IMG/VR virus record: IMGVR_UViG_3300045988_124424
Location: 1-64,000 of that record
Length of the DNA stretch: 64,000 bases
DNA from: a virus
Reading direction: 5' to 3' (one strand)
The notes under the pieces are model-generated. The model had not been told where the DNA came from and did no database searches. It worked only from the letters and a program-made list of their open reading frames with translations. Positions 17,228 through 57,200 of this stretch are shown in pieces. The position numbers were made by a program, and so were the translations under genes. The first letter of the stretch is position 1. Each line of letters opens with the position of its first letter.

Positions 17228-17694
17228 TGATAAGAAGTCGCGGCTTATGCCAGGCTTGCAGGAGCAAAGAGTTGACTCCGAAGAAAAAAAACAGAATTAC
17301 ATCCATTAAAAACAGCAGCAAGAAGAAAAAGTTAGAGAGCCCGGATTTATCCGGGTTTTTTTGTCTTATGCTGGAAGAGCTGAATAGTATTCGGATGTCT
17401 ATGACTGGTAGGGCTATCCATTTTCCTACAGTATGTAACGTATGTCACATACTTCCAAAAAGGATATATAAGTCGGTTGCCACTTGCAGAGATAATATAG
17501 TTTTCCTTCATGAATCGGAGCATACGGTATTCGACATGTATCTTGACCGGATGGAATTTGATAAACTTGAAACAGAATTTCCTTTTGTATGGAAGTATGC
17601 GGTAAAGAAGGTATTGGATATGGAAAGCAGGGGAATGATTAAAGAAAGAGGTAGGTTGATTATTGAAATAATTGACAGGTATAACCCCAAATAG
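17173..17694 (+). CDS. Zinc-finger / HNH-like endonuclease candidate (173 aa).
   Basis: N-terminal CxxC...CxxC. Central CNVCH...DN...LHESEH could be an H-N-H arrangement. The last about 6 codons (DRYNPK*) lie inside the repeat family and are duplicated at 27.73 kb. Confidence 0.45.
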   Translation: MESKEKKLYVCERCGRKVMIRSRGLCQACRSKELTPKKKNRITSIKNSSKKKKLESPDLSGFFCLMLEELNSIRMSMTGRAIHFPTVCNVCHILPKRIYKSVATCRDNIVFLHESEHTVFDMYLDRMEFDKLETEFPFVWKYAVKKVLDMESRGMIKERGRLIIEIIDRYNPK

Positions 17695-18047
17695 TATTAA
17701 CCCAATATAATTCTATTATAAAAGTTTAATACATCTCTTTCAGAGATCGGGTTATTAGCCTAAGCCTTGAAACGAAGGCTACGTTATTTGAGAATAGATA
17801 GTTACCAAGGAATGTTTATCCAAGTTTCTTGCTCTAAGGATGGTGATTAAACAGGAGTAGTGTATTTGACGAAACAGTGTTGCCATTATATAAAACCTCT
17901 TATAACATTGGCGATGGGTACTTACAGGAGAAATCATGACTTATCCCTAACGGGATTTACATCTACCAAGGAGACCGAAAGGTCTCCGAGGGGATGTATT
18001 AAAACATACGAATAGCTTTAAATATATTTAATAGAATATGGGATATG
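17678..18047 (+). repeat. Intergenic structured repeat R-A, the longest copy.
   Basis: Homologous to 27730-27939 (direct orientation) and to 47133-47335 (inverted). Contains hairpins ATCTCT-TTC-AGAGAT, GCCTT-GAAACG-AAGGC and GGAGACC-GAAA-GGTCTCC. Carries a 134-bp block, flanked by TACCAAGGA direct repeats, that is absent from R-B. Confidence 0.85.
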
Positions 18048-19980: not shown

Positions 19981-20986
19981 TTTTAGAAAATACGAAAACG
20001 TACCCCGGTTTCAACTTGACCGCAGACCCGGCAGGAGCCGGCTGAAGCTAACCTGCCCGGCCTGCGGGAAAAGCCGGTGCCTCACCCCTTATATTGATGT
20101 GGCAACAGGTCAGGTTGTTGGAAACGAGTTCGGAAGATGCGATCATGAACGGACTTGCGGTTACGATAAACGACCTACCGGCAAGGATGTAGGTGACAAA
20201 GATCTTTGGATTTCGGGAAACAAGTGTATAAGAGCTTATCGTCCTCCTGTAAATCCTGACGTTGTAAATTACATACCTTTTAGCGAGTTTGAGAGGACTG
20301 TGGTTCCAGACGATAGAAACACCGTATTTAGATTTTTATCGTCTCTATGGGGAAAAGAAAGGGTATCTGATGTGTTCAGAAGGTATCATGTCGGAACAAT
20401 GGACTTATGGGGATGGAAAGGGTGTTGTATATTCTGGCAGATAGACAAAGATTTTGTATGCAGAACCGGCAAGATCATGGACTTTTGTATAAAGACCGAC
20501 AGCCAGGGGAATGAGATTGATGTAAAAAGAGTGAAGGAAAAAGACGGTGACAATGAGCGGCCTCATGTTATGTTTTATCACTCGTTGCATGCAAGAGACT
20601 TCTTGTTTAGACAATGCCTGTTTGGAGAACATCTTCTAAGCCAGTATCCGGATAAGGTGGTTAATTTGGTGGAATCAGAAAAGACGGCTATTATATGCGC
20701 TGTGAATAAACCAGATGAGTTATTTGTAGCTACCGGTGGGTTGCAGAATCTAAGGCCGGAAGTGATAGATGTTTTAAAAGATAGAAAGACTGTAGCTTTT
20801 CCGGACAAAGGACAAGCATTTGAGACATGGAGTAAAAAGATAGATGGGATGATGATGAAGTCAAGGATAAAAGTATCGGACTATCTTCAAAATGTTGAAA
20901 ATGTAGGAGACGGAGATGATGTGGCAGATTTGATAATTAGTAACAAGATAAAAGAAAAATATCATGAGCCTGGATGTTTATATTAA
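19973..20986 (+). CDS. Putative DNA primase-like protein with an N-terminal zinc-binding motif (337 aa).
   Basis: CPACGKSRC...GRCDHERTCGY Cys/His cluster. A TOPRIM-like acidic segment VNLVESEKTAII...VATGG. The gene lies upstream of a DnaB-like helicase. Confidence 0.4.
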   Translation: MLDFRKYENVPRFQLDRRPGRSRLKLTCPACGKSRCLTPYIDVATGQVVGNEFGRCDHERTCGYDKRPTGKDVGDKDLWISGNKCIRAYRPPVNPDVVNYIPFSEFERTVVPDDRNTVFRFLSSLWGKERVSDVFRRYHVGTMDLWGWKGCCIFWQIDKDFVCRTGKIMDFCIKTDSQGNEIDVKRVKEKDGDNERPHVMFYHSLHARDFLFRQCLFGEHLLSQYPDKVVNLVESEKTAIICAVNKPDELFVATGGLQNLRPEVIDVLKDRKTVAFPDKGQAFETWSKKIDGMMMKSRIKVSDYLQNVENVGDGDDVADLIISNKIKEKYHEPGCLY

Positions 20987-21317
20987 GAACAAGAAGAAAG
21001 AAGAGGATCGTGAATGGGTTGCAAACATCACCCACAACATGAACAAGATGGCACAAAGAATATTCGTATCGGAAAATAAAGAAACGCTGTACGATTATGT
21101 TTGGAGACCAGAAGAATTGTATAAAGAAATATATACCAATGAGATGAAGAATGTACTTACAAAAGGTATATGTATTATGATCTCTAAGAGAAAAAGTCTT
21201 TTGAGATACGAGCCGGAAAACGGATGGGGGTCTTATGATTCATTTCTTAAGTTTCTTATCAAATACAAAGAGGCGTGTGAAGATCATCCGGGTTATATAA
21301 TTGAAGCAAGTAGATAA
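20964..21317 (+). CDS. Hypothetical protein (117 aa).
   Basis: ORF. Confidence 0.5.
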   Translation: MSLDVYIKNKKKEEDREWVANITHNMNKMAQRIFVSENKETLYDYVWRPEELYKEIYTNEMKNVLTKGICIMISKRKSLLRYEPENGWGSYDSFLKFLIKYKEACEDHPGYIIEASR

Positions 21318-21579
21318 CAACATGGAAAATTATAAAAATACTTTAAATGAGGTAGTGGTGATCGAATCGTCACCAGAAACGTATTTTGTTTACGCTATTC
21401 GTAATGCTATTCGTATCTCTAAATGTGCGTATCCGACAGCTAAGAAAGTAATTTTCAAAAGAGAGGACGTAGAGGTAGAGATCTCAGAAATGGAAACTGA
21501 AAGCAGTTTGTATGAAAAGTTTAAAGAAAAACAAAAGAATAGGGTATGGAACTTAATGAGCGCCAACAACGGGTTTTAA
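21301..21579 (+). CDS. Hypothetical protein (92 aa).
   Basis: ORF. Confidence 0.45.
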   Translation: MKQVDNNMENYKNTLNEVVVIESSPETYFVYAIRNAIRISKCAYPTAKKVIFKREDVEVEISEMETESSLYEKFKEKQKNRVWNLMSANNGF

Positions 21580-22112
21580 GAGGCGAAATTTGTCCTTATT
21601 GCGGAAGAGAAACTGAGCTGGTAAATGCCGATAAAATATATAGCAGAAAAGGCTTAGGGATGGTTATGATGTGCAAACCATGCAACGCTTATGTCGGTGT
21701 TCATGAATCAGGGCCGAATAAGGGAAAAGCTAAAGGCCGGCTTGCGGGGCCATCACTGAGGTCTCTTAAGATAAGAGTCCATGCCGAACTTGACAGATTA
21801 TGGTCTACGCCGGAGGAACGGGAAAGGATGTATAAAGATTTATCTGAATTTCTATCTATACCGGAAGAGTACACACATATAGGTATGTTTGGCGAGAAGA
21901 CGATGGGAAAAGTCTTTCAGTTCTGTCATGTAAACAAAGAACGATCAGGTTCGAGAATAGAATGGCATAAGCCTGGAGATAAGTGCCCTAATAAGAACAA
22001 TCAAATAGTGTCAGGAAGTAGCGCATGTAGAGGATGTCCTGAGTATCTCCATGATGAGAAAGATGGGTATGTCTGGTGTGATCCTGATATGAGCTACGGC
22101 AGGTTGAAATAG
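21546..22112 (+). CDS. Zinc-ribbon protein (188 aa), a possible DNA-binding regulator.
   Basis: CPYCGRE...CKPCNAY and C-terminal CRGCPEY motifs. Confidence 0.5.
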   Translation: MELNERQQRVLRGEICPYCGRETELVNADKIYSRKGLGMVMMCKPCNAYVGVHESGPNKGKAKGRLAGPSLRSLKIRVHAELDRLWSTPEERERMYKDLSEFLSIPEEYTHIGMFGEKTMGKVFQFCHVNKERSGSRIEWHKPGDKCPNKNNQIVSGSSACRGCPEYLHDEKDGYVWCDPDMSYGRLK

Positions 22113-22164
22113 GGCGCGAATTGCCTATCTTTGTGCTATTATTAATCAAAAAAAATATAAGCAC

Positions 22165-22443
22165 ATGGGCAGATCAACAGAGTACTACAGGACTCATCCA
22201 GAAGCTAGGAAGAAAAAGGCTAAAAAGGACAAGGAGATAAATGCCAGACCGGAACAGAAAGCCAAACGCCGGGAGCTTGGTCGTAAAAACTACGAAACGG
22301 ACAAGAAGAAGGGCAAGGGCTGGAGGAAAGGCAAGGATTGTTCTCATACCAAGAACGGTCTTAGGTATAAATCAGTAAAAGCTAATAGGGGATCCAAGTC
22401 GGATACGAAAGGTGACAAAAATGCAAGAGGAGATAGCAAATAG
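22165..22443 (+). CDS. Highly basic Lys/Arg-rich protein (92 aa), probably nucleic-acid binding.
   Basis: About 35 percent K+R. Overlaps the start of the helicase gene. Confidence 0.5.
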   Translation: MGRSTEYYRTHPEARKKKAKKDKEINARPEQKAKRRELGRKNYETDKKKGKGWRKGKDCSHTKNGLRYKSVKANRGSKSDTKGDKNARGDSK

Positions 22444-23545
22444 GATAGATATAAGAAGGATATTCAAGACCTCTAAACAAGTTATGGAAGAGGCGTATGA
22501 GAATATCTTGAAATACAGGCGGGGAGAGCTTATCCCCGCTAAAACCGGATACGATTATATTGATGAGGCTTTGCTTGGAGGTATTTTTCCTCAGCACGCT
22601 ATTGCCATAGGAGCCCGGCCATCTGTAGGTAAATCGTATGTGGCCCAAAAGATATTGGAAAATGTGATGAATCCGATGATCAACCCGCAAGCAGAAGATT
22701 ATTTTCTTGTTAATTGCGAGTTCGAAATGAATCCTCAAGATCTTCTTCTTCGTAGAATGAGCCAGGATATGAAAAAGCGAGCTCCTGAAATATTAAGAAG
22801 GCAAGATTCTAATACAGTAGAAGAGATGAGGATGTTTGAAATCCTTCAAGGTGAAATCAGGAATAATATAATATACATCGATGCTCCGTGTACGGTAAAA
22901 GAGTTTGAGGCGGCTGTGTATCATATAGCTACCAAACATAAAGACAAACGTCTTATAATATTTAAAGTCGATCATATTGCTTTAATAAAAAGAATGGGAT
23001 TAGATCCTAAGTCGGCTATAGATGATTTGGTGGCGGTTATGAATGAGGCTAAATTAGTATATAAAAACATATTTTTCCTCATCATATCCCAATTCAACAG
23101 AGAGATAGAAGGAAGGATAAAAAGCCCACAAGAGCAGCCTCCGCGTCTTTCTGATTTTTACCAATCTGATACGCTGGGTCAGTTATGTACGTTAATGATA
23201 GGTTTGCACAATCCTCGTAGGTACGGACTGGATAAGTATATGATATTTGGGAAAGACTGGTATCAGACCCTTGATAGGTTTAAAACTGAAAACAAAACAT
23301 CATTCAGGACAGCCGGGCTGGTGTTTCATCATATATTGAAGGTAAGGCAGGTTAGTATGGAAGAGCTTACTAACACAATCCACCCAGAGATTCTGCCGGG
23401 GCATGGATGGATGTACGGGGAGGGCGGGACGAAGTTCGTGAACCCTAACCAGCCGCCGACGCCGCCCAAGCTCTATACTGTGGAAGACGTTACGAACAAT
23501 CAAGATCAAGAACAAGAGACAAAGGAAGAACAGTCAGTATATTAA
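22412..23545 (+). CDS. DnaB-like replicative helicase (RecA-fold ATPase domain, 377 aa).
   Basis: Walker A GARPSVGKS. A IIFKVDHIALI Walker B-like strand. Replication-gene context. Confidence 0.6.
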   Translation: MTKMQEEIANRIDIRRIFKTSKQVMEEAYENILKYRRGELIPAKTGYDYIDEALLGGIFPQHAIAIGARPSVGKSYVAQKILENVMNPMINPQAEDYFLVNCEFEMNPQDLLLRRMSQDMKKRAPEILRRQDSNTVEEMRMFEILQGEIRNNIIYIDAPCTVKEFEAAVYHIATKHKDKRLIIFKVDHIALIKRMGLDPKSAIDDLVAVMNEAKLVYKNIFFLIISQFNREIEGRIKSPQEQPPRLSDFYQSDTLGQLCTLMIGLHNPRRYGLDKYMIFGKDWYQTLDRFKTENKTSFRTAGLVFHHILKVRQVSMEELTNTIHPEILPGHGWMYGEGGTKFVNPNQPPTPPKLYTVEDVTNNQDQEQETKEEQSVY

Positions 23546-23558
23546 AAAAAAGAAACGT

Positions 23559-24161
23559 ATGAGACTTACTGTAGAAGAAAACGAATACCTGATAAGTAAG
23601 TTCCTTTTGGTTCTTACCGAATTTGCAGGGGATGAAAGAGAGATGTTTTTAATCAACTCCATACACGACAAGGCGGTGGCGGATATGAATTATCGTCTTC
23701 CGTCTTTAATAAGCAGAGAACGTAAAAGACGAGTCATTGAGCTCCTTAAAGAAGGGACCAGAATAATCAAGGACTTTTCCGGCTATGCAGGTGATATGGG
23801 TATGATTAACGAATACGATCGTCTAAAGAAAGAAATAGGAACCGTCCAAGATCAGCTTGGCGACGTAGAAGGTCAACTTCGGGCAGCCGGCGAAGTAATC
23901 AAGAAAGAGCTTGATATGATTGCTGACCGAATCAAAGAAGATCTTCTCGACCGAGAGCTGGCTAAAAGTAATGCCGAGGCTGAAAGAAAAGCCAAAGTGG
24001 ATCTGAGATACGAAGTAGCTTTAGGTGACTACAAGGAGATGCTGGAAGTGATTTTTACAACCAGAAACAAGTATTCTACGGTAGATTCTGTACATGATGA
24101 TCTTCGTCAGTCGGTATCTACCGGTAGAAATTCGATTATCAAAGAAGGATACAATAGTTAA
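23559..24161 (+). CDS. Hypothetical coiled-coil protein (200 aa).
   Basis: ORF. Confidence 0.55.
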   Translation: MRLTVEENEYLISKFLLVLTEFAGDEREMFLINSIHDKAVADMNYRLPSLISRERKRRVIELLKEGTRIIKDFSGYAGDMGMINEYDRLKKEIGTVQDQLGDVEGQLRAAGEVIKKELDMIADRIKEDLLDRELAKSNAEAERKAKVDLRYEVALGDYKEMLEVIFTTRNKYSTVDSVHDDLRQSVSTGRNSIIKEGYNS

Positions 24162-24176
24162 AAAAAAGGAGGAAAT

Positions 24177-24386
24177 ATGGAAAAGAAGGAATTTAAAGTA
24201 GGAGAAGTGTTTGATGCCGGACTTGTAAGATTAAAATGTGTGGATGCTCCAGAGCCAGACTTAGGATGTGAAGGATGTATATTTAATGACCACATTACAT
24301 GCGGGTCGGTAGATGTAGTCGCAGGCCCGTGTAATCACGTAGAGAGGGAGGATGGTAAGGATGTTATTTTTATTAAAGCTGATTAG
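24177..24386 (+). CDS. Hypothetical small Cys-containing protein (69 aa).
   Basis: SD AAGGAGG 6 nt upstream. Confidence 0.5.
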   Translation: MEKKEFKVGEVFDAGLVRLKCVDAPEPDLGCEGCIFNDHITCGSVDVVAGPCNHVEREDGKDVIFIKAD

Positions 24387-24388
24387 GC

Positions 24389-25102
24389 ATGTACATCAAT
24401 TTCAGACAACTTGCAGCATCAGACATGACTCCTAATGATCTGGCTAATCTTCTTGCTATAAGACAGAAGGATACGGTTATGATCGAAGCCATGCTGGAAA
24501 AAGATGCTGGGAGGTATATAGAGCTTGGCCTGGTTGAGAAATTAAAATCAGGCGTGATGAGATTGACCAACAAAGGAACGTCTTTTGTGAATTATATAGA
24601 GACACCGGAAATAACGGACGAGGTCCTGGAAACGTTGAAGATTATGATAGGAATGTACGAATCATATTCAAAAGACATAGGTGTCAGCAGAAAAGAAGCG
24701 GAATCCAGATTGTGTTGGTTTATGGGTAACACCTCATTCAAGAAAGAGGTCATACTTCAGGTAACGGAATCTTATATAGCAGAGTCAGGAGATTATACAA
24801 TGAGCTTATGTAACTTCATATGGAAACCGCCTTCTCAGGCTTTTTCAGTTCATATGAGCCTTAAAAATTCAAAGCTCTTTGACTTAATAGCTGAAAAATT
24901 TAAGATCGCTACCGAGCCTTATTTGGAGTCTAAGAAGAATAAGGAAATGGATTGGTTGTTTGCCGTATCTAAATTGCCTACGCCGCCGGCTAAAGGCAAT
25001 CCGGATTATTTGTTTACCGGAAGTTCTGAAACAGACAAAGAGCGATTGAAAAACATAAAAACGTATTTGTTTAACAAAATTAGAAAGCAATGGAAAAAGT
25101 AA
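24389..25102 (+). CDS. Hypothetical protein (237 aa).
   Basis: ORF. Confidence 0.6.
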   Translation: MYINFRQLAASDMTPNDLANLLAIRQKDTVMIEAMLEKDAGRYIELGLVEKLKSGVMRLTNKGTSFVNYIETPEITDEVLETLKIMIGMYESYSKDIGVSRKEAESRLCWFMGNTSFKKEVILQVTESYIAESGDYTMSLCNFIWKPPSQAFSVHMSLKNSKLFDLIAEKFKIATEPYLESKKNKEMDWLFAVSKLPTPPAKGNPDYLFTGSSETDKERLKNIKTYLFNKIRKQWKK

Positions 25103-25341
25103 GAATCAGAAAGATAATAGAGGATATAATTATTACTCAGTTTCTTAATTCGGAAATAGATATAGTTCATGAAGAAGATGTGACGTTTAAAGAACTTGGA
25201 TTAGATTCTGTTGATCAAATTGAACTGGAAGTGATGGTGGAACAAAAATTCAATATTGTTATTATTGATTATGATATGGAGACCATCAAAGATATGACTG
25301 ATCTTGTTTACAAAATAATAACAGAAGGGTATGGGAAGTGA
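25090..25341 (+). CDS. Hypothetical acidic protein (83 aa).
   Basis: ORF. Confidence 0.45.
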   Translation: MEKVRIRKIIEDIIITQFLNSEIDIVHEEDVTFKELGLDSVDQIELEVMVEQKFNIVIIDYDMETIKDMTDLVYKIITEGYGK

Positions 25342-25825
25342 CATAATTTTATGCATGGCTTTAATAGCGTCATTTGCTTTTGTTATACAGTTTTTGTTGT
25401 CGATATTAGGATCTGATCTGGATACGGATATTGACATTGATAGCGCTTCTGATTTAAGCATGTCTTTGTCGGACATCATATCATTCAAAGGCATAACACA
25501 TTTTATTCTTGGATATAGCTGGACTACGTACTTTTCGGGTTCCCATTTAGTAGGGATCGTAATAGGGTCATTTTTCTTTATCGTTTTGTTTTACGTATAT
25601 AAGTTACTTCTTAAGTTAAAACAAGAAATGGTGTACGAATGTCCGGAAGATTTAAATGGCAGAGAGGCGGAGATAGTATTTAGATCAGGTAAGAATCATT
25701 ATATGGTAAATATTTCGAAAAATGGAAGACAGGAACAGATGAGAGTGAGGTGCTTGTCTGGAAAAAATTACAAAAACGGTGACAAGGTGAATATAAAATA
25801 CGAAGAAGGAGAATTAAGTATCTAA
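25331..25825 (+). CDS. NfeD-like membrane protein (N-terminal TM helices plus a C-terminal beta/OB-like domain).
   Basis: Hydrophobic N-terminal half and a soluble C-terminal beta-rich tail. It sits immediately upstream of an SPFH gene, the classical NfeD-SPFH pairing. Confidence 0.5.
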   Translation: MGSDIILCMALIASFAFVIQFLLSILGSDLDTDIDIDSASDLSMSLSDIISFKGITHFILGYSWTTYFSGSHLVGIVIGSFFFIVLFYVYKLLLKLKQEMVYECPEDLNGREAEIVFRSGKNHYMVNISKNGRQEQMRVRCLSGKNYKNGDKVNIKYEEGELSI

Positions 25826-25857
25826 TTTTTTTTATCAACAATTAAATTTTAAAAGTT

Positions 25858-27558
25858 ATGACAACAATCATGTACGTGTCAGCTATTTTAGCTGTAGTGA
25901 TTATTTTGACAATCATCGGAGTCTTATCAAGGTATCGTAGATGTAAGCCTAATCAAGTCTTGGTCGTTTATGGTAAGACAGGTGGGGAAAAGAAATCGGC
26001 GAAATTATATCATGGTGGAGCGGCATTCGTCTTGCCTATTATTCAAAGCTATGATATTTTGTCTATGGAGCCTATGCAAATAGATTGTAGGCTCACCGGT
26101 GCTTTGTCGTCTCAAAATATCAGAGTGGATGTACCTACTACTATTACAGTAGCAATCAGCACAAATCCTGAAATTATGCAGAATGCAGCAGAAAGGCTTT
26201 TGGGGATGGATACTGAATCTACTGAAAATCTTATTACGGATATTGTTTATGGCCAAATGCGTTTGATCATTGCTGAAATGACGATTGAAAAACTTAATTC
26301 TGACAGGGATGAGTTTTTGGATAAGGCAAGAAAAAACATTGATAACGAACTTAATAAGTTAGGCCTTTACCTCCTAAATATCAACATCAGTGACATCAGA
26401 GACGAAGCCGGCTATATCATGAATCTTGGCAAAGAAGCTGAAAGTAAGGCCCTGAACGAAGCACAGGCTAATATCGAAGAACAGGAAAAGCTGGGTGCTA
26501 TTAAGATTGCTGTACAGCAAAAGGAAAAAGAAACGGCTGTAGCTAATACCCAAAAAGAGCAAGAGATTCAAATTGCCTATACTGAAAAAGAAAAGGAAAC
26601 GGTAGTAGCTGAAACAAAGAAAGAAAAAGAAGTAGCTTTGGCTTTAACCGATAAAGAAAAACAGATCGGTGTAGCTCAAGCCGATAGAGATAGGGCTGCG
26701 GTTATTGCAAAGACTTTGGCTGATAAGGAATCAGCGATCGCAAAATCTAAGGCAGAACTTGAAGTAAATAAAGCCGAGGCTGAAAGGATGGAAGAAGTCG
26801 GAAAGAACAAGGCTGAAGCTGACAAGGAAGCAGCTATAGCAATACAAAACTCTGAAGCTCAGATTAAGAAGGCTGAGGCTGAGAAAAATGCTTCTGTGGG
26901 CTACAACAATGCCCAGAAAGAGGTTGCTGTATCAGAATCAGAATTGCAGGTTATCAAAGCTCAATCAGAAAAGAAAGCCGGAGAAGAGAAAGTTAAATCG
27001 GAAGCGGCTGTGAAAACGGCAAAAGAGCTTGCTGATAAAGAAGTGGAAGAAGCTAAAGCTAAGAAGGTTCAAGCTGCGCTTAAAGCTGAAAAGATTGTGC
27101 CGGCTGAAATTCAGAAGCAGGAGGCTATGTTGCAAGCTGATGCTGAAGCTGAGAAGATCAAACGCCGGGCTGATGCCGAAGCAGCAGCACATTTGGCAAA
27201 AGCTGAGGCAGAGGCAAAAGCTATTCAGATGAAGCTGGAGGCAGAAGCCGAAGGTAAGAAAAAGTCGTTAATGGCAGAAGCCGACGGATTTAAGGCTATG
27301 GTGGAAGCAGCAGAATCCAATCCTCAGATCGCCATCCAGTACAAGATGGTTAATCAGTGGAAAGAAATTGCTGGAGAACAGGTTAAAGCATTTGAGCACA
27401 TTAATCTCGGAAATATCACGGTATTTGACGGCGGTCAGAACAGTACCGGTAATTTCCTTAACAATGTTGTCAAGACCGTCGCTCCGGCATTGGGAGTCAT
27501 TGATCAGCTTCCGATTGCAGATACTTTAAAGAAATTAAAAGGAGATGACAAAAAATAA
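25858..27558 (+). CDS. SPFH / band-7 / flotillin-like protein with a long Glu/Ala/Lys coiled-coil C-terminus (566 aa).
   Basis: N-terminal TM helix, an SPFH-like core (VLVVYGKTGG...FVLPIIQSYDILSMEP) and an EA-rich repeat region typical of flotillin/YqiK-like proteins. Confidence 0.65.
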   Translation: MTTIMYVSAILAVVIILTIIGVLSRYRRCKPNQVLVVYGKTGGEKKSAKLYHGGAAFVLPIIQSYDILSMEPMQIDCRLTGALSSQNIRVDVPTTITVAISTNPEIMQNAAERLLGMDTESTENLITDIVYGQMRLIIAEMTIEKLNSDRDEFLDKARKNIDNELNKLGLYLLNINISDIRDEAGYIMNLGKEAESKALNEAQANIEEQEKLGAIKIAVQQKEKETAVANTQKEQEIQIAYTEKEKETVVAETKKEKEVALALTDKEKQIGVAQADRDRAAVIAKTLADKESAIAKSKAELEVNKAEAERMEEVGKNKAEADKEAAIAIQNSEAQIKKAEAEKNASVGYNNAQKEVAVSESELQVIKAQSEKKAGEEKVKSEAAVKTAKELADKEVEEAKAKKVQAALKAEKIVPAEIQKQEAMLQADAEAEKIKRRADAEAAAHLAKAEAEAKAIQMKLEAEAEGKKKSLMAEADGFKAMVEAAESNPQIAIQYKMVNQWKEIAGEQVKAFEHINLGNITVFDGGQNSTGNFLNNVVKTVAPALGVIDQLPIADTLKKLKGDDKK

Positions 27559-27697
27559 ATACAATGGCCCAAGGTTACACTTGGGCCTAATTGAAGAAAT
27601 AAAAGCAGCATTCATAGATTTCCTGCCTGCGGGAACAGTGATTTTAAGTGCTTTACTAATTACGATATTTTTAACATGGATTTTGGACAAGATTTAG
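27545..27697 (+). CDS. Possible small single-TM protein (50 aa).
   Basis: ORF MTKNKYNG...GTVILSALLITIFLTWILDKI, overlapping the flotillin stop. Not in the ORF track. Confidence 0.25.
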   Translation: MTKNKYNGPRLHLGLIEEIKAAFIDFLPAGTVILSALLITIFLTWILDKI

Positions 27698-27747
27698 AAC
27701 CAGAAGAACTGACCGGGCATTATGATCGGTGTTATAACCCCAAATAG
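27676..27747 (+). pseudogene. Remnant ORF (23 aa) ending DRCYNPK*, matching the C-terminal end of the HNH-like gene 17173-17694.
   Basis: The shared TATAACCCCAAATAG terminus lies inside the repeat family. Confidence 0.35.
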
Positions 27748-27939
27748 TATTAACCCAATATAATTCTATTATAAAAGTTTAATACATCTCTTTCAGAGAT
27801 CGGGTTATTAGCCTAAGCCTTGAAACAGAGGCTACGTTATTTGAGAATAAATAGTTACCAAGGAGACCGGAAGGTCTCCGAGGGGATGTATTAAAACATA
27901 TGAATAGCTTTAAATATATTTAATAGAATATGAGATATG
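27730..27939 (+). repeat. Intergenic structured repeat R-B, a short copy lacking the 134-bp block.
   Basis: Near-identical to R-A over about 210 bp. Hairpin GGAGACC-GGAA-GGTCTCC (the tetraloop differs from R-A). Stem GCCTT/GAGGC retains a G-U pair. Confidence 0.85.
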
Positions 27940-28284
27940 GAATTGATTTTGAAACAGAAGAAGAGGAGGATGAAGAGTATGACTGACGAGGAATTTGTAT
28001 TGGATAATAAGAAAAAGATTATAGTAAGAAAAAGAATATCTTATTTAAACAAAGGGGATAAAGTGTGGATTGTGTCTTCCGACGGGTATCTGCTACACAC
28101 GGACGTGGTTAGAGCCGAACGCGGACGGTCTTATGTGGATATAGACGGTATCCTGTATTGGAAACGAGGATTAGATGGCAAGCATCGTAATCGTAATAAC
28201 TACATGCAGTTCGCCATGACGCCGGAGGACGGTAAGAAGTATGTCGTATATTACCCGGAAGGATTTAAAGACAATGACTTATGA
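27937..28284 (+). CDS. Hypothetical basic protein (115 aa).
   Basis: The ORF starts inside the conserved end of R-B. Confidence 0.5.
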   Translation: MELILKQKKRRMKSMTDEEFVLDNKKKIIVRKRISYLNKGDKVWIVSSDGYLLHTDVVRAERGRSYVDIDGILYWKRGLDGKHRNRNNYMQFAMTPEDGKKYVVYYPEGFKDNDL

Positions 28285-29300
28285 TGGTCCCGGAAACGCA
28301 TTTGCTATATAAGGAGTTTAATGGCGTGAAACGTCTTGCCATATCTTATTCCCAGATAGATACGTTTCTTACTTGTCCAATGAAATGGTATAAGACTTAC
28401 GTGGAGGGCAAAAGGTCTACGGAAAAACAAGAAGCTACGTCTTATGGTACGGTTATTCATAAGACACTGGAATACTTCTTCAAGAACGGAAGACAGCCTT
28501 CTGGCAAAGACCTGGGGGAAGCTATAAGTTACTATGCTTACCAAGAAGACATACCTTGGCAATCACCGGAAAATATGATGATAGCCATGAAGCAATCTGG
28601 AGAGCTTCTTGCTTGGATTGTGGATCTGTTCAAAAAAGACGGCAATAGGTTTATGATAGCTGATGGTGATCTTAATCCCTGCGAGAAACTTATCAGACAC
28701 GGCGCTATAGTTGGAGTCGAAGAAGATTTTGTGCTGCCGTACCGTCTTCCTAAGCCTGTTAACATAAATGGAGTAATTCATACTCATGTGTACATAGTAG
28801 GATCGGTAGACCTTCATCTGGCTATAAAAAGCAAGAACGTAGTTCACCATTATGTCATAGATTGGAAATCAGGTAATAAGGTTTTTGATTCTAAGAAGTT
28901 GGAAACGAATTTACAGCATCCTATATATTCATTTTACATCTATAGAAAATATGGTGGAGTTCTACCAGATATGAACATCTATTTCTTTACCAGAACCAGA
29001 CAATACCAAAAGGTTAAGGTGGATGAGGAACGTAAAACAAAATCTATAGAGATGCTAAATGACACTTTGTCTAAAATGTATGATTTTGAAGATAATAGTG
29101 TAAAATCATTTCAAGCGTACATCCAGGGAGCAGAAGGAGCCAGGTATAGCAAGCGGCGTGCCACCCTAAGCCAGCCTGTTTCGCAAAACAAGCTACCCTG
29201 CCCGTCAGCACTGTGTTATTATTGCGACTTTGGATTACATAACAAAAACGAATGCCCTTTCTCTTCGGATTGGGATCCGTCTAAAAAGATAAAACGATGA
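28281..29300 (+). CDS. Cas4-like / RecB-family PD-(D/E)XK exonuclease with a Cys cluster (339 aa).
   Basis: N-terminal SQIDTFLTCPMKWY. Motifs GSVDLHL, VIDWKSGNK and QHPIYSFYIY (QxxxY). Three C-terminal Cys (CPSALCYYC...NEC) consistent with an Fe-S site. Confidence 0.65.
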   Translation: MMVPETHLLYKEFNGVKRLAISYSQIDTFLTCPMKWYKTYVEGKRSTEKQEATSYGTVIHKTLEYFFKNGRQPSGKDLGEAISYYAYQEDIPWQSPENMMIAMKQSGELLAWIVDLFKKDGNRFMIADGDLNPCEKLIRHGAIVGVEEDFVLPYRLPKPVNINGVIHTHVYIVGSVDLHLAIKSKNVVHHYVIDWKSGNKVFDSKKLETNLQHPIYSFYIYRKYGGVLPDMNIYFFTRTRQYQKVKVDEERKTKSIEMLNDTLSKMYDFEDNSVKSFQAYIQGAEGARYSKRRATLSQPVSQNKLPCPSALCYYCDFGLHNKNECPFSSDWDPSKKIKR

Positions 29301-29469
29301 AATACGAGGACGTTCAAAAGTTAAGAACAAAATACCGGCAAGATCCGGAAGTTATAAACGTAGAATACATGAGAGACGTTGCTGTAAGATGCGGGAATTT
29401 CAAGAAAGCGTTTGAGCTTCAGGAAAGACTGAAGGATATATGGTTTAACTACTTAAAAGAAATACAATG
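29297..29469 (+). CDS. Hypothetical small protein (56 aa).
   Basis: ORF MKYEDVQKLRTKYRQDPE... with ATGA overlap. Below the ORF-track cutoff. Confidence 0.3.
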
Positions 29470-29781
29470 AAAGAAGCATTGATAGCAGGAGCAGCGGTCT
29501 TTTTATTATCATACTTGTTTGTAACGATTCTTATAAAAATAAGCAGGGTAATAGATCGGTATAAGATGAAGAAGAAGACCGACAAAATAAAAGTTGGTCA
29601 AAGATACGAATACAAAGGCTACTTCATGGATCCATTTGAAAGAGGCAAGCATATAATCAAGATATTAGATATAAAGGAAGGGTACGCTCTGTACGAGTAC
29701 GGAAAAAGCCCAAGTTTGTTATGTTCTATGGAGCTTGAAGATATTGTCGAAAGATATGTTTTAATTACTGATATAAAATAA
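29467..29781 (+). CDS. Hypothetical protein with an N-terminal TM helix (104 aa).
   Basis: ORF. Confidence 0.5.
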   Translation: MKEALIAGAAVFLLSYLFVTILIKISRVIDRYKMKKKTDKIKVGQRYEYKGYFMDPFERGKHIIKILDIKEGYALYEYGKSPSLLCSMELEDIVERYVLITDIK

Positions 29782-29787
29782 GGGATT

Positions 29788-30174
29788 ATGGAAAAGAAAG
29801 TCACAATCAAAGAAGGGATGGATATTTTTTACAAAAATGCAGGGAAAGGTATATGGGTCTATATTGGACTTTTTGGAAATAAAGTGCTATCCATTTTAAA
29901 AAACAAAGGTGTTATTGCATGCGAAAACGATGCTGAATATTGCGTGTTGATGGATGGAGAAGATCATTTCATAAGTATAGCAAAAGACATGAGTCACGAC
30001 TATTGTTGTGAGTACGTTGTAGAAAGAGCAGAAGCCTACAGAGATTACCCCTCCAAAGGTGCTACATGCAGTGTATGCCTGTTTGAAGATAATGAGAATA
30101 AAGCAAGGGAGATGTTGAAAGAGGCGATAATAGAACTTTCAAAAAATAATATAATAGATTGTGATGGGCTTTGA
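29788..30174 (+). CDS. Hypothetical Cys-rich protein (128 aa).
   Basis: ORF. Confidence 0.5.
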   Translation: MEKKVTIKEGMDIFYKNAGKGIWVYIGLFGNKVLSILKNKGVIACENDAEYCVLMDGEDHFISIAKDMSHDYCCEYVVERAEAYRDYPSKGATCSVCLFEDNENKAREMLKEAIIELSKNNIIDCDGL

Positions 30175-31585
30175 ACTTAGACCTTACCAGAAAGAAGCAG
30201 TAGATGCCGGGCTTAAGTTTCTTACAGGAAGATCTAAAAAGCCTGGCATAATAGTAGCCCCATGCGGAGCGGGTAAGAGCCTTCTGATATCCAAGATAGC
30301 ACATGAGATAAATAGACCAACGTTAGTATTGCAGCCATCAAAAGAAATTCTGGAGCAGAATTATGCTAAGGCTGTATCGTTTGGCTCCGAACCTACTATA
30401 TACTCTGCCTCATGTGGCGTAAAGGAATTATCGGCTATGACTTATGCTACACTTAAAAGCATAAAGAAAGACGTAGCAAGGTTGAAAGATACAGGGATAG
30501 ATACCTTATTGATAGACGAATGTCATTCAGGATATTCTCCTGAAGAAGGTTCTGAATTTATGGAGTTTATGAGCGAGTTTCCCGAGGCGAAGGTGCTGGG
30601 CTTCACCGCCACTCCCTGCCGCCTCAGAGCCTACAGTTCCATGCTGGAAGGAAACTATAGCAAACTTAATATGCTGACAAAAGACGAGCATAACTTCTTC
30701 AAGAAGTTAGTTCATGTAATACAAATACAAGAGCTAACTTCTCAAGGTTTTTGGTGTCCACTTAAGTACGAACGATGGTCATTTGATGAATCGGCTCTGA
30801 TGTTAAACAGTACCGGAGCCGAATATACCAACGAATCTATTAAAGAAAGCATCGTACGAAATGGCTTAAACAACTCTATCTACAAGCGTCTTCTTCAGCT
30901 TATGAACGAGCGTAAAGCCATTTTGGTTTGTATGGATTCTATCGAATCATGTAATAGAATATCAGAGTTTATGAATGCCAAAATGGGAGCCATAACAGGT
31001 GTCGTAACATCGCTAACAACCAAAAAGAAAAGAGAGCAAATCATATCAGATTTCAAAGAAGGTAAGTTGAAGGTGGTTTTTAATTATTCAACGCTTGCTA
31101 CCGGATTTGATTTTCCTGAACTTGATTGTGTGATGTTTGGTCGACCGACTTTCTCATATTCAACGTATTACCAAATATTAGGCCGCGCCGTCCGCATCCA
31201 TCCTGACAAGAAAGAGGCGCTGATTATTGATTGCTGCGACAACATGAGGCGTTTCGGTCGGATAGAAGACTTGACAATCGAGCAATTCCCTTCTAAGGGC
31301 TGGTGTATGTTTGCCGGAGATCAACTTCTGTCCAATATAAGGATGGGTGATATTATTACCAAAGACGAGATCCTTCGCCGGGCAGCCTCGCTTAAATCTG
31401 TGAATGGAGATGGTAGGAGAGAAGACGATCTTGACAGTATAATAATGTGGTTTGGAAAATATGAAGGAATTAGATTCAAGGACATACCGGTGTCGTATTT
31501 TAGGTTCTTGGCTGAGAATATGGCAGTAAAACCAGGAGATAGAAAAGAAAAGATTATCGAATATTATAATAGGATAAAGGCATGA
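30161..31585 (+). CDS. Superfamily-2 DEAD/DEAH-type helicase (474 aa).
   Basis: Motif I GIIVAPCGAGKSLL. Motif II LIDECH. Motif III-like GFTATP. Motif VI QILGRAVR. Confidence 0.75.
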   Translation: MMGFELRPYQKEAVDAGLKFLTGRSKKPGIIVAPCGAGKSLLISKIAHEINRPTLVLQPSKEILEQNYAKAVSFGSEPTIYSASCGVKELSAMTYATLKSIKKDVARLKDTGIDTLLIDECHSGYSPEEGSEFMEFMSEFPEAKVLGFTATPCRLRAYSSMLEGNYSKLNMLTKDEHNFFKKLVHVIQIQELTSQGFWCPLKYERWSFDESALMLNSTGAEYTNESIKESIVRNGLNNSIYKRLLQLMNERKAILVCMDSIESCNRISEFMNAKMGAITGVVTSLTTKKKREQIISDFKEGKLKVVFNYSTLATGFDFPELDCVMFGRPTFSYSTYYQILGRAVRIHPDKKEALIIDCCDNMRRFGRIEDLTIEQFPSKGWCMFAGDQLLSNIRMGDIITKDEILRRAASLKSVNGDGRREDDLDSIIMWFGKYEGIRFKDIPVSYFRFLAENMAVKPGDRKEKIIEYYNRIKA

Positions 31586-31938
31586 ACAACAAGAGAAGAA
31601 AAAAAATATCGGATGTTATTAACAATGTAAATAAGTATAAAACGGATTTTGAATACATCAAATCAAAGTTGTCAGAGTTAAAGCACAACATAAATTCAGC
31701 CAAAGATGATGTTGATATGATTTTAGACGAAGAGACTGAGGCGAGAGATAATATACCTGAATCGTTACAAGACTCAGAAAGATATTGGGAATCAGATCAG
31801 GCTGTAACTTATATGGAGGAGGTGGTTGATGACATGGAAGGTATTATAAATGATTTAGATGATGTGATTTCAACCATAGATGGGAGCATTAAAACTATAA
31901 ATGGTTCTATTAAAGTAAATTTGGAAGGAATAATATAA
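31582..31938 (+). CDS. Hypothetical acidic protein (118 aa).
   Basis: ORF. Confidence 0.5.
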   Translation: MNNKRRKKISDVINNVNKYKTDFEYIKSKLSELKHNINSAKDDVDMILDEETEARDNIPESLQDSERYWESDQAVTYMEEVVDDMEGIINDLDDVISTIDGSIKTINGSIKVNLEGII

Positions 31939-32244
31939 ATGGAAACAAATGAATTAAGGGAAATACTTAAATTGTATGGTCTTCAACATGATGTTGTTAT
32001 CAACAAGAGTTCAAGAAGGTATTCTATTATCTTAGATAATAACATAATAGGAACCAATCACGACAAAGAGAGGGTGGTTGTGTTCCGTCCTATACCGGAA
32101 GGGAAAAACACATTCTGCATGGAGCGAGATAGGTTCTACACGGAGTTTGAAGAAGCTTTTGATGACGATAAAGCCATAGAAGCCGTAAGACAATATTTTG
32201 AAAACAATAAAACAGAAAGTCATGAACGAAAACGAAATATTTAG
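31939..32244 (+). CDS. Hypothetical protein (101 aa).
   Basis: ORF. Confidence 0.5.
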   Translation: METNELREILKLYGLQHDVVINKSSRRYSIILDNNIIGTNHDKERVVVFRPIPEGKNTFCMERDRFYTEFEEAFDDDKAIEAVRQYFENNKTESHERKRNI

Positions 32245-53685: not shown

Positions 53686-54225
53686 TTATAAAACCGACTT
53701 ATACAATGACGGATCCCAAACTCCTTCTATATAAATCTCTGGAAAACTCAAACTGCCATCACGAAGAGTGGTGACTTCCAAGCTGGGAATGTTGAAAACA
53801 GTACTGGTATCACCAAACTCACCATTCAACTTGATAGCATTTCCGCTGTTATTAGCCTCATAATAAAAATAACAATAATTTTCATTAATGCTTGGATCAT
53901 ATTCGTACCAATATGTTAGATCTTGTATATGATCTTCTATGTTACCAATTTTGTTTTCACCTAATATAAAAATACCATTATTGCTATGATTATAAACCAT
54001 AGATTCATAACCACCATAATTCCAATTACTATTAAACATTATGTAACTAACATCAGAATCATGATCTTTTAATACAGGTCCTATATGTATATGAATTTTA
54101 TTAAACTGACATACATAAGGTCTTTTTCCTCCAAGCCTTTTTATATCTTCATTGGATAACTTATTATAACATCCTCCCACGAAATTATCCGCAGCATTAA
54201 AAAATCTCCTTCTCATACTCAACAC
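53686..54225 (-). CDS. Hypothetical protein (179 aa), possibly structural.
   Basis: ORF overlapping the end of the giant gene. Confidence 0.5.
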   Translation of the reverse strand: MLSMRRRFFNAADNFVGGCYNKLSNEDIKRLGGKRPYVCQFNKIHIHIGPVLKDHDSDVSYIMFNSNWNYGGYESMVYNHSNNGIFILGENKIGNIEDHIQDLTYWYEYDPSINENYCYFYYEANNSGNAIKLNGEFGDTSTVFNIPSLEVTTLRDGSLSFPEIYIEGVWDPSLYKSVL

Positions 54226-57200
54226 TCCTTATTTAACTCATTTATCGAATCCGAATTATCAGAACCTTCTACGAGATTCTTATTCCTATCTATCTCTTCC
54301 TGGCTCATATTACTCATCATATTTTGTATTTTTCTACCAGATTGAGATAAAGAGCGGATGAATGCACTGGAACTTATCTTAACTCCAAGATTCGGTTTTG
54401 CCCTAAACGCTTCACCGGTACTGATATTATACAAATCATACACACCTGAGTTCATATAGAATTTATATATCCAGTTTCCACCAGCTTTTTTGTATCCTAA
54501 TTTGGTTAGCTCGACTACACTCATACCAAATTTAATGCCATTACGACCCATTATCTTCTCCGGTATAGGTTCTACCTTAGCCGGAACAGATGTATATGCT
54601 TCATCACCGCCGTACAGGAAATAAGGGGTTGTTACCCTTGATATGTGAGTAAGCGGTTCTTCGGATATACGAGGTTCGTCTTTCTCGGCCTTAGATTCTT
54701 TCCTTGGATTGGATATTCTAATAAAAGGATCGTATGTTAAAAAGGTTAAGCCGTATTCTACTTTATAACCTGATACGCCGTTAAGATCCCTTATAGCCTT
54801 AGTCGTATGCGAGTGGTTGATGGTGTCTATCCCGTACCTTGATTCCATATCGGTCATAATGCTATTAACTTCATCCCCCTCTACATAAACCTCTTCTCCT
54901 TCCGGGATAGAGGTTATGCCGGCAGCCCTTCTAAGTAACCATAAAGTAACTTCGGCAATATCAGAGAACTTATCTCCGTTCTTCTTATAGTTATCTACTC
55001 TTCCTTCTTCAGATCCAGGTAAATAGACATCTCCCTCAGCTTTGCCATCATCTCTGGGTTGTCCTTCTCTTTTTCCATCTCCCTTTTTATCGCCATCTTC
55101 CTCAGCGCGTACTGCACCGCCTTCTGCACTTCCTTCTTTTCCATCATTTAAAATATTATCTGATTCTGACTCTATAGACTCCACAACAGCATCATACTCT
55201 GGAATGCCGCTAAGGAAATCTGCTACGTTATTCAAAAACTCTATTTTTTCCTCGTTTGTCATATCAAGGCTTTCCATAGGTCTCCATATGGCAGGCAGGT
55301 TATTTAATTCTATTGCAGTAGAAACATCTTCTACAGTTTGATTATCTACCGTAGGCAAAACTTCAGAAACCAAACTATTGATGTCAGATTCCATTTTTTC
55401 TACTTCCTCTTTTGTGCCATATTCTTTTAGGGCATCCATGCCATTGACTCTAAGAGAATAATTCAAAGCCTTGCTTGGAACAAAATTAATATATTTCAAA
55501 AAGTTTTTCAACTCTGATATAATTTGTTCGTCAGATCTTGGACCAACATAATCAACCACCACCTGATCTGTTTGAGAACGAAGCCAAGAAACATATTCTT
55601 CTAAGGTCTTACCTCCCTTTTTAGAAGGAGTGGATATTTTATCACCTACTGTTCCTTTAGGTTCTAATCCCATTTCTTCCTTAAGGCTTTTAGGATTACC
55701 TCTCTCACGAAGAAACCTCAAATCACCTCCTACAATCTTCCTTGCTATAAAATCAAAAATATTAGCATAAGACGGCAATCCTTCTTTTTCTATATGAGAT
55801 TCTATTTCGTTTAACATAAGAGGGAAGTTTCTCCTGGAGGTACGCTTCTTGCCAGGTAAAGACCGCGCAGCTTGTGCCGCAGGAGTCGGCTGAGCTAATG
55901 GCGCCGGCTGAGTCTCCCGGACAGCCCCTTCCTCTGGCATTTCCTCTTCATAAACATCCACGTCTTCTTTAGAAGTAACGGTCTTACCCTCATCAGAGAA
56001 AGGAAGATCATCCTCTATAAGTGATTTAGGTCTGGAAGATGATTTACCAAACTGAATCCTGATCTTAGGAGCAACAAACATCTCACCTTCGAAATCTATT
56101 CCAGATTCTACTTCAGACGTCACAATGTCTTTCACACTCCTACTTCCATCTTCTACCCACTTAACAACATCAGGAACTGTAGATAATTCTTCTATAGCCT
56201 CACGAGCTTTTCTAAGACCTGAAATAGGATTCAAATACGATACTTGATACGAAGCCGGATCAAGACCTAACTTGGTTAGATACGCATTAAGATCTTGTAT
56301 ATCATCTTGACTCATCTGTAGCAATTCAGAATCACCGGATTCAAGCAGCATATCTATAAAAGACATCCATTTCCGCCCTTCCTCTGATTCCACAGAACGT
56401 AGGCTAACTGGGAAAAGATAATTAAGACCGTTTTTACCTTTGATGACAACTACCGGAACTCTTACATTTTTGTAATTATTCCCCTTGTCATTTAATATAG
56501 AATAAGCAAATGGGAAGCCTGTGTATTTAGATCCGTTCTTAAGCACGACTTTGCCATTTAATACATATCCGACATCAGATACTTTTTCAGCACCTTTTTC
56601 GGTAATAGGGAGATTTTCTACCTGGCCATATCCTTGACCGTTCACCTTCATGTTAAACACCGGTCTTCCGGGAAGGGTCTGGGCAACAACATGCGTGCCG
56701 ACGCCGATGGTAGCCGACCGGCCGGCGTCCTTCTTCCACTTGTTGAAAGCCGTTCTTCTTATCTTACTTATACCATCTATGCCTCCTGTATCAGCTTTTA
56801 CAACAGAAACGAATCTGTTCCCACTCATGACCTTGATAACCATATTGGATACCAGTTTATTCTCAGCAGATTCTATTCTTTTTTTATCGCCGGACTGAAC
56901 AGCGTCATTGTATTCGGCAAAAAGAGACTGATTATAGGTATCATTTACATCTATTTCGAGATTAACCTTATCTCCTTTTTTCAAAGAAGATAATGCTTCC
57001 TGATCTATTTTATCTACCTCATTCTCTCCGAATCCGACACCTGTTCTGTACGGAACCAATTCATCTGAATCAAGACGCTTATAAACCAAAGAATAGGAAT
57101 TACCCACGTCCTGAATAGACACGTCTGTGTAACGGTTAAGAACACGAGCCGATTCTTTGTCTATAGACCATCTCGCATGATAAGGCAATTCAATTATAGT

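Follow-up and report, generated by a model that had tools for sequence, protein, structure and literature searches.

Operons that combine a flotillin with an NfeD-type membrane protein are widespread in bacteria, and their physiological role is still debated. A gene pair of this kind is present in viral DNA, on a stretch of 64,000 nucleotides (nt) that comprises positions 1 to 64,000 of the IMG/VR record IMGVR_UViG_3300045988_124424 and is called the window in the following. This raises the question of where a phage obtained such a pair and what the pair does during infection. The two genes encode a 164-amino-acid (aa) flotillin partner of the NfeD2 type (YuaF/YqiJ-like; positions 25331-25825, plus strand) and a 566-aa flotillin-type SPFH protein (25858-27558, plus strand), and they are separated by an intergenic gap of 32 nt. 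The pair is an SPFH2-NfeD2 operon, a known type in an unusual viral setting, and the identity of the pair and its origin from a Bacteroidales host are regarded as very likely correct.

The window was confirmed to be phage DNA, with a source phage of about 150 kb from the human gut. Its bases 20000-32000 are 94.8% identical to the phage csAssE-Sib, which has a complete genome of 151 kb and also comes from the human gut. An NfeD-like gene followed by an SPFH gene on a phage, as the original prediction had put forward, was borne out in its coordinates as well as in its phage origin.

The flotillin and its membrane partner

By its profile matches, the 566-aa protein is unambiguously assigned to the SPFH/flotillin proteins, in agreement with the earlier reading. 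Residues 30-211 match the Pfam model Band_7 (PF01145; E 2.5e-25, 90 bits against a cutoff of 23.6), residues 450-559 match the model Flot (PF15975; E 1.5e-9, 38.4 bits against a cutoff of 27), and the closest solved structures are those of human flotillin-2 (E 4.7e-23) and flotillin-1 (E 3.5e-18). The SPFH/Band_7 domain is preceded by a membrane anchor formed by residues 1-28, the sole N-terminal hydrophobic segment of the protein (Kyte-Doolittle value of 2.83). A very long EA-rich coiled coil had been noticed before and was recovered at residues ~196-470. Within residues 196-470, 57% of the positions are Glu, Ala or Lys, and the full protein contains 19 EA and 21 AE dipeptides. On the NCBIfam equivalog model for FloT (NF058507) the phage flotillin scores 148 bits and remains below the cutoff of 700; it is a member of the flotillin family and not an orthologue of Bacillus subtilis FloT.

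A flotillin length of 566 aa was found in 73 of 80 related IMG/VR genomes of the same species. Across the phage population the length ranges from 408 to 659 aa, with in-frame deletions and duplications located within the coiled coil (approximately residues 212-450; proteins P0289, P0301, P0306, P0297 and P0307). Four contigs with lengths of up to ~151 kb, originating from three sources, carry the form with 481 aa. The height of an SPFH cage is determined by its coiled coil, and real length variants would therefore have a different geometry. Furthermore, some proteins from assembled contigs (P0020, P0028, P0031 and P0032) consist of the N-terminal membrane part of the partner fused to the C-terminal region of the flotillin. 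These fusions are either natural deletion variants without most of both genes or misassemblies.

For the 164-aa protein, single-sequence searches in Pfam, PHROGs, NCBIfam, PADLOC and PDB were uninformative. Their sole matches were to an anti-sigma factor antagonist, and these were dismissed as chance-level. Homologues that could be found by a word index all belong to the same phage lineage. An exhaustive profile search with the partner family revealed 235 cluster representatives, mostly of 155-185 aa, which align from end to end. The structure was predicted with AlphaFold2 from an alignment of 72 sequences, resulting in a model with a mean predicted local distance difference test (pLDDT) score of 89, which superseded an earlier, poor model from 5 close sequences (pLDDT 63). 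It contains three N-terminal membrane helices (residues 2-26, 52-69 and 72-96), a disordered acidic loop with a DxDxD motif (residues 28-41) and a C-terminal beta domain (residues 112-163, pLDDT 96-98). The membrane protein with a C-terminal beta domain that had been proposed from the letters of the DNA is therefore reproduced by the model. In the predicted structure, the C-terminal domain is a soluble, all-beta OB-fold of five strands (residues ~111-164) that resembles solved NfeD domains.

The relation to NfeD proteins was addressed at the level of profiles. By hmmsearch, YuaF is the best PDB match of the family profile and is aligned over the whole OB domain, though only at E 0.023. The hhalign comparison of the family profile with YuaF resulted in a probability of 74.6% (E 2.7e-5, 62 columns, 19% identity), where YuaF was represented by a single sequence and seeding with YuaF gave 6 near-identical Bacillus fragments. 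In a library of viral structures the top match is a 175-aa gut-virome protein (35% identity over the full length, E 1.4e-13) with the UniProt name "NfeD-like C-terminal domain-containing protein". The Pfam model NfeD (PF01957) gave no match to the window partner at E<=0.1, and one of 72 family members matches it (6e-5). The prototype YuaF itself is also below the cutoff of this model (18.8 bits vs. 29.1), so that a PF01957 match is not discriminating for the NfeD2 type. No ClpP-type serine protease domain was matched in the 164-aa partner, which is thus not the long form of NfeD (NfeD1b).

Flotillin-associated NfeD2 proteins are described as "minimally conserved" and are marked by three hydrophobic stretches, an all-beta C-terminal domain and their position in the operon (Hinderhofer et al., 2009; PMC2636767). 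All three marks are found in the partner, whose 164 aa and layout are within the definition of NfeD2 (~140-175 aa, three N-terminal hydrophobic stretches, short linker). An NfeD2-like nature of the 164-aa protein is supported by the profile comparison with YuaF, the relative named in UniProt, the layout and the conserved position upstream of the flotillin. The NfeD fold suggested in the original prediction agrees with the layout and the operon position and with a marginal match of the family profile to YuaF, whereas the Pfam NfeD model was not reached. The length of 164 aa is the same in 79 of the 80 related genomes.

Host origin, capture and retention of the pair

Host loci were searched for in one genome per species using the flotillin alignment, the partner family being too divergent for a pattern scan. 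The scan resulted in 80 loci from Bacteroides, Parabacteroides, Phocaeicola, Prevotella and relatives, and the chromosomal flotillins at these loci are 64-67% identical to the phage flotillin over the full length. In 79 of the 80 loci an open reading frame (ORF) of the partner family is located 14-132 nt upstream on the same strand (hidden Markov model (HMM) E 1e-51 to 1e-67), and in the single exception the locus is cut by a contig end. The public names of the host partner are only "hypothetical" or "transmembrane protein". In Bacteroides thetaiotaomicron, for example, the operon encodes a 165-aa 'hypothetical/transmembrane protein' and a 552-aa 'flotillin family protein'.

The Bacteroidales chromosomal operon and the phage pair agree in the two genes, their order and their common strand; the genes are of similar size and separated by a short gap, and the partners belong to the same HMM family. 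At the level of sequence, these loci show that the pair is host-derived and stems from a Bacteroidales clade. The phage version differs in its partner, which is only 31-44% identical to the host partners, in a coiled coil that is ~33 residues longer, in a shorter tail and in its position among replication genes, where it is bordered by genes for an acyl carrier protein (ACP) and a small protein of 50 aa. The ACP is absent from the 80 host flotillin loci and the 50-aa ORF was likewise not found in them; the phage thus carries the two-gene operon of the host clade between phage-specific neighbours. In some Phocaeicola and Bacteroidaceae genomes (loci L142-L147, from Phocaeicola vulgatus and relatives), a second, deeper-branching pair of a 566-aa flotillin and a 177-aa partner is present besides the standard one. 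The loci L142 and L150 come from the same assembly.

The pair is also present in a sister phage lineage with contigs of up to 150 kb (155.5 kb for near-identical variants). Its flotillin is 83% and its partner 65% identical to the window proteins, and the gene order, with a 237-aa gene, the ACP, the partner, the flotillin and a 52-aa ORF overlapping the flotillin stop, is that of the window. In a third, phage-like context (L168) the pair follows a gene of the DHH family. In both gene trees the phage copies (window, L166 and L168) form one clade beside the Bacteroidales copies. Over the first 380 columns of the flotillin alignment, the identity between phage and host is ~70%, whereas host flotillins are on average 89% identical to each other. 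The capture is considered old because the identity between phage and host is well below this host-host mean. The two genes were inherited together and were apparently captured as one unit, in a single old event.

Between the sister lineages, the ratio of nonsynonymous to synonymous substitution rates (dN/dS) of the flotillin is 0.057, with saturated synonymous sites, and both ORFs of the pair are intact in nearly all of the 80 related IMG/VR genomes. The flotillin is under strong purifying selection. The identity to the host proteins differs by region and amounts to 79% in the SPFH domain, 83% in the C-terminal region and 50% in the first half of the coiled coil, whereas in the partner it is 33-41% throughout. 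Because the oligomerisation regions are host-like while the first half of the coiled coil and the partner have diverged, this pattern suggests a phage-specific interface between flotillin and partner on a scaffold that could still form mixed assemblies with the flotillin of the host.

Viruses rarely carry the module. In 50,697 deposited phage records, eight flotillin matches were detected, of which only two are full-length, namely those of csAssE-Sib and Vibrio phage KIT04. PHROGs contains no family for the flotillin or the partner. Near-identical copies are found on 165 IMG/VR contigs, a number that a broader pattern increased to only ~171 of 2.9 million. The literature searches turned up no description of a flotillin-NfeD pair carried by a phage; a 2026 preprint reports an SPFH-like domain in a different genus of Crassvirales gut phages. 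The 'flotillin family protein' of KIT04 (LC487410) has a small membrane protein encoded immediately upstream, as in the window phage. However, this flotillin has 473 aa and is only 27.6% identical to that of the window, and the upstream protein has 82 aa, consists of helices only without an OB domain and gave no significant match to the partner family. The KIT04 flotillin represents an independent acquisition.

Among the cellular systems, yuaF-floT (yuaG) of B. subtilis and yqiJ-yqiK of Escherichia coli share with the phage locus a small protein, with three hydrophobic stretches followed by an OB domain, that is encoded directly upstream of a ~500-570-aa flotillin with an EA-rich coiled coil. 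The genes of SPFH2-NfeD2 operons co-evolve and are transferred laterally together (Hinderhofer et al., 2009; PMC2636767). In these operons the partner is barely recognisable by sequence, which likewise applies to the phage partner, and its similarity to YuaF is marginal. The phage locus differs from them in its viral setting, in the absence of a yuaI-like acetyltransferase gene and in a flotillin below the FloT cutoff.

HflK/HflC of E. coli are likewise members of the SPFH superfamily; they assemble into a membrane cage and have historically been tied to phage biology via FtsH and lambda CII. They are, however, a periplasm-facing hetero-pair without an NfeD partner, and the window protein matches flotillins best and not HflK/C. 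In Staphylococcus aureus, the OB-like domain of NfeD attaches to the beginning of the coiled coil of the flotillin and confers stability on high-molecular-weight oligomers (Ukleja et al., 2024; PMC11222466), and under stress unfolded membrane proteins are held by the FloA-NfeD pair (PMC11222466). A physical mechanism has been proposed for no other pair. FloA-NfeD follows the same operon logic as the phage pair, with a partner composed of membrane helices and an OB-like domain. In contrast to the phage flotillin, FloA is short (~37 kDa) and falls into another SPFH subgroup, and the holdase activity is described for FloA-NfeD.

Genomic setting and neighbouring genes

The pair is located within a long block of replication genes on the same strand and is bordered by genes for DnaB, a primase, a PD-(D/E)XK exonuclease and a helicase. 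Besides the DnaB-like helicase and the exonuclease, the window codes for helicases, a methyltransferase and very large virion structural proteins. One of these is a structural protein of 2213 aa (54219-60860, minus strand), whose closest cultured relatives are found in the Cellulophaga phages phi4:1 and phi17:2 (145 kb; 27% identity over residues 121-658). A crAss-like identity of the phage was withdrawn in view of these relatives and of the taxonomy of csAssE-Sib, which stops at Caudoviricetes, and no claim for Crassvirales is made. The structural protein would place the gut phage nearer to the phi4:1/phi17:2 group of large Bacteroidota phages than its name implies. The phage is abundant in metagenomes of the human gut, where its near-identical contigs number in the hundreds.

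Directly upstream of the pair, a gene encodes an ACP of 83 aa (25090-25341, plus strand; Pfam PP-binding 6.8e-6, PHROG 2.1e-8 and NCBIfam ACP models), which was not listed in the original prediction. The stop of the ACP gene overlaps the start of the partner gene by 11 nt, with the same overlap and position in the sister lineage, and because of this overlap the two are probably co-translated. Although the ACP is only 37% identical between the sister lineages, the DS motif for phosphopantetheine attachment is kept. No cognate synthase or transferase for the ACP was seen in the annotated relative. In the GenBank record of csAssE-Sib, the ACP gene is labelled "acyl carrier protein", the partner gene "transmembrane protein" and the flotillin gene "flotillin family protein". 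The ACP is a neighbour on the phage side and lies outside the host operon. Just upstream of it, a conserved 237-aa protein is encoded (24389-25102; dN/dS of 0.087 between the lineages), for which no family match was obtained and the sole match was a weak one to PADLOC LmuC (E 0.0028).

Downstream, a small ORF of 50 aa with a C-terminal hydrophobic helix (27545-27697, plus strand) overlaps the stop of the flotillin gene by 14 nt. Its positional counterpart in the sister lineage has 52 aa with the same layout and overlap, 34% identity and a dN/dS of 0.87. In 30 of the 80 related genomes a 10-nt deletion between AGTG direct repeats ends the ORF at 34 aa, before the helix. Together with 3 further genomes in which earlier frameshifts occur, the ORF is truncated in 33 of 80, and in 5 of 80 there is a 21-nt in-frame duplication within the helix. 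The AGTG-repeat deletion was found on several sequence backgrounds, and examples for the length polymorphisms are the loci L012, L022 and L005. The single-helix ORF over the flotillin stop had been predicted correctly, including helix and overlap, whereas it is not a reliable third component of the locus. At most, it encodes a small membrane protein that the phage can do without, and it should be left out of the module.

The small ORF is followed by an intergenic stretch of 239 nt (27698-27936), which holds one copy of a repeated element of ~205 nt (27733-27939). The second copy (17680-17811 plus 17964-18047) contains ~150 nt extra in its middle, and the copies are 96-98% identical. Relative to csAssE-Sib and the sister lineage, the copy behind the small ORF is an insertion. 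It falls just after the ATG that is used by the downstream gene in csAssE-Sib, so that the corresponding gene of the window starts at 27937. The stretch has a stable predicted fold (z -2.97) with the hairpin GGAGACCGGAAGGTCTCC; no Rfam match and no tRNA were found in it. An RNA gene was rejected, and the gap proved to contain a repeated insertion unrelated to the module. The repeat could represent a regulatory cassette or a small mobile element.

In related phage lineages, genes of the TnpB/IS605 OrfB type (Cas12f-like TNB domain) were observed within the blocks of replication genes (L165 from ~13180 onward, L167 from ~9738 onward and L168 at 2670-3815). At the left edge of the window, positions 19-210 form a tandem array of 22-nt units resembling AAATCCAATAGATAAGCGTTTT.

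Possible roles of the pair during infection

According to the best reading, the phage carries a host-derived operon and uses it to supplement or take over the maintenance of membrane microdomains during a long infection; taken as a whole, this statement is given about an even chance of being right. An ancestor of the ~150-kb gut phage lineage would have taken up the Bacteroidales module of an NfeD2-type protein and a flotillin as one unit, and the lineage would have held both genes under purifying selection since then. Judging from the cellular homologues, both proteins would insert into the inner membrane of the host during infection. The flotillin would oligomerise via its SPFH domain, coiled coil and C-terminal region to form a scaffold or cage on the cytoplasmic face, and the OB domain of the partner would dock on the start of the coiled coil and stabilise large oligomers. 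The module could then supplement or take over the microdomain function of the host and keep membrane proteins, fluidity and energetics working, so that the infected cell would stay productive for a large, slowly replicating phage.

Several points weigh against this reading. The host of the phage is suggested by flotillin similarity only, and the timing by gene position only. The gene trees were built quickly by neighbour joining and carry no support values. The mechanism cited for the interaction comes from the short FloA of S. aureus and not from a long flotillin of Bacteroidales. In addition, the length variation of the coiled coil could mean a relaxed constraint in this region, or it could reflect assembly artefacts.

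A different role, possible but rather doubtful, would be subversion, in which the phage flotillin co-assembles with host flotillin and the diverged partner redirects the mixed scaffold, thereby disabling or rewiring host microdomains. This could serve superinfection exclusion or blunt membrane-based defence or stress signalling of the host. It would fit the host-like oligomerisation regions (SPFH domain and C-terminal region) next to a partner and a presumed docking region that are diverged (33-50% identity), as well as the location within the early/replication block, a frequent site of exclusion and takeover genes; moreover, the host has its own copy, which makes plain supplementation seem redundant. 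On the other hand, neither protein of the pair is matched by PADLOC or anti-defence families, and the host partners are also diverged (mean identity of 55%), so that rapid change characterises the family as a whole and not just its phage members. A function in anti-phage defence was weighed as well; no PADLOC model matched the pair. In a further scenario, which is judged improbable, the phage would build a membrane compartment of its own. A phage-specific flotillin cage, whose height would vary with the length of the coiled coil and which would be tuned by the highly diverged partner, would enclose or sequester particular membrane proteins of host or phage. Candidate cargo would be an entry receptor, a defence effector or a protease such as FtsH. 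If true, the compartment would be a dedicated viral membrane-organising device that goes beyond a copied housekeeping function of the host.

Other explanations draw on the neighbouring genes. The ACP could supply acyl groups at a site organised by the flotillin scaffold, so that ACP, partner and flotillin would together modify or expand the host membrane. The 11-nt overlap of ACP and partner in both sister lineages, the conserved DS motif and the absence of the ACP from host loci, which implies that the phage joined the genes, are in favour of such a lipid-linked unit, yet it is considered distinctly unlikely: in L168 a DHH-family gene and not an ACP gene is located upstream of the pair, the ACP is poorly conserved between the lineages (37%), genes for an acyltransferase, a synthase or a phosphopantetheinyl transferase were not seen in the vicinity, and ACPs are common as stand-alone phage genes (PHROG 5934). 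Control of lysis timing, with the scaffold and the small single-helix protein acting on a holin-like permeabilisation of the membrane, has a still smaller chance. The hydrophobic helix of the 50-aa ORF and its conserved position in the sister lineage would agree with it, but no endolysin, holin or spanin is annotated nearby, where replication genes surround the pair. In addition, the helix is lost in 33 of 80 genomes while flotillin and partner stay intact, and host operons are devoid of the small ORF. Finally, the high similarity to host genes, which marks the host origin, could be explained by a recent uptake of passenger DNA without function. This is hardly credible given the single clade across three diverged phage lineages, the flotillin dN/dS of 0.057 at saturated synonymous sites, the two ORFs that remain intact across the 80 genomes and an identity to the host (~65%) well below the host-host mean, which points to an old capture.

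The flotillin annotation itself was already public in GenBank; what is added here is that the partner family is assigned to NfeD2, that the pair is of host origin and goes back to one old capture, and that selection on it is strong. A family of ~165-aa proteins of Bacteroidales, named "hypothetical" or "transmembrane" so far, is now tied to the flotillin partners of the NfeD2 type. In practical terms the value is modest and consists of a defined gene pair that could be deleted or expressed when a host becomes available. With respect to the debated role of flotillin-NfeD operons, the phage pair can be regarded as a natural experiment on the benefit of the module: since the complete pair has persisted in a virus over a long period and under strong selection, the module would give a benefit under the stress of infection.

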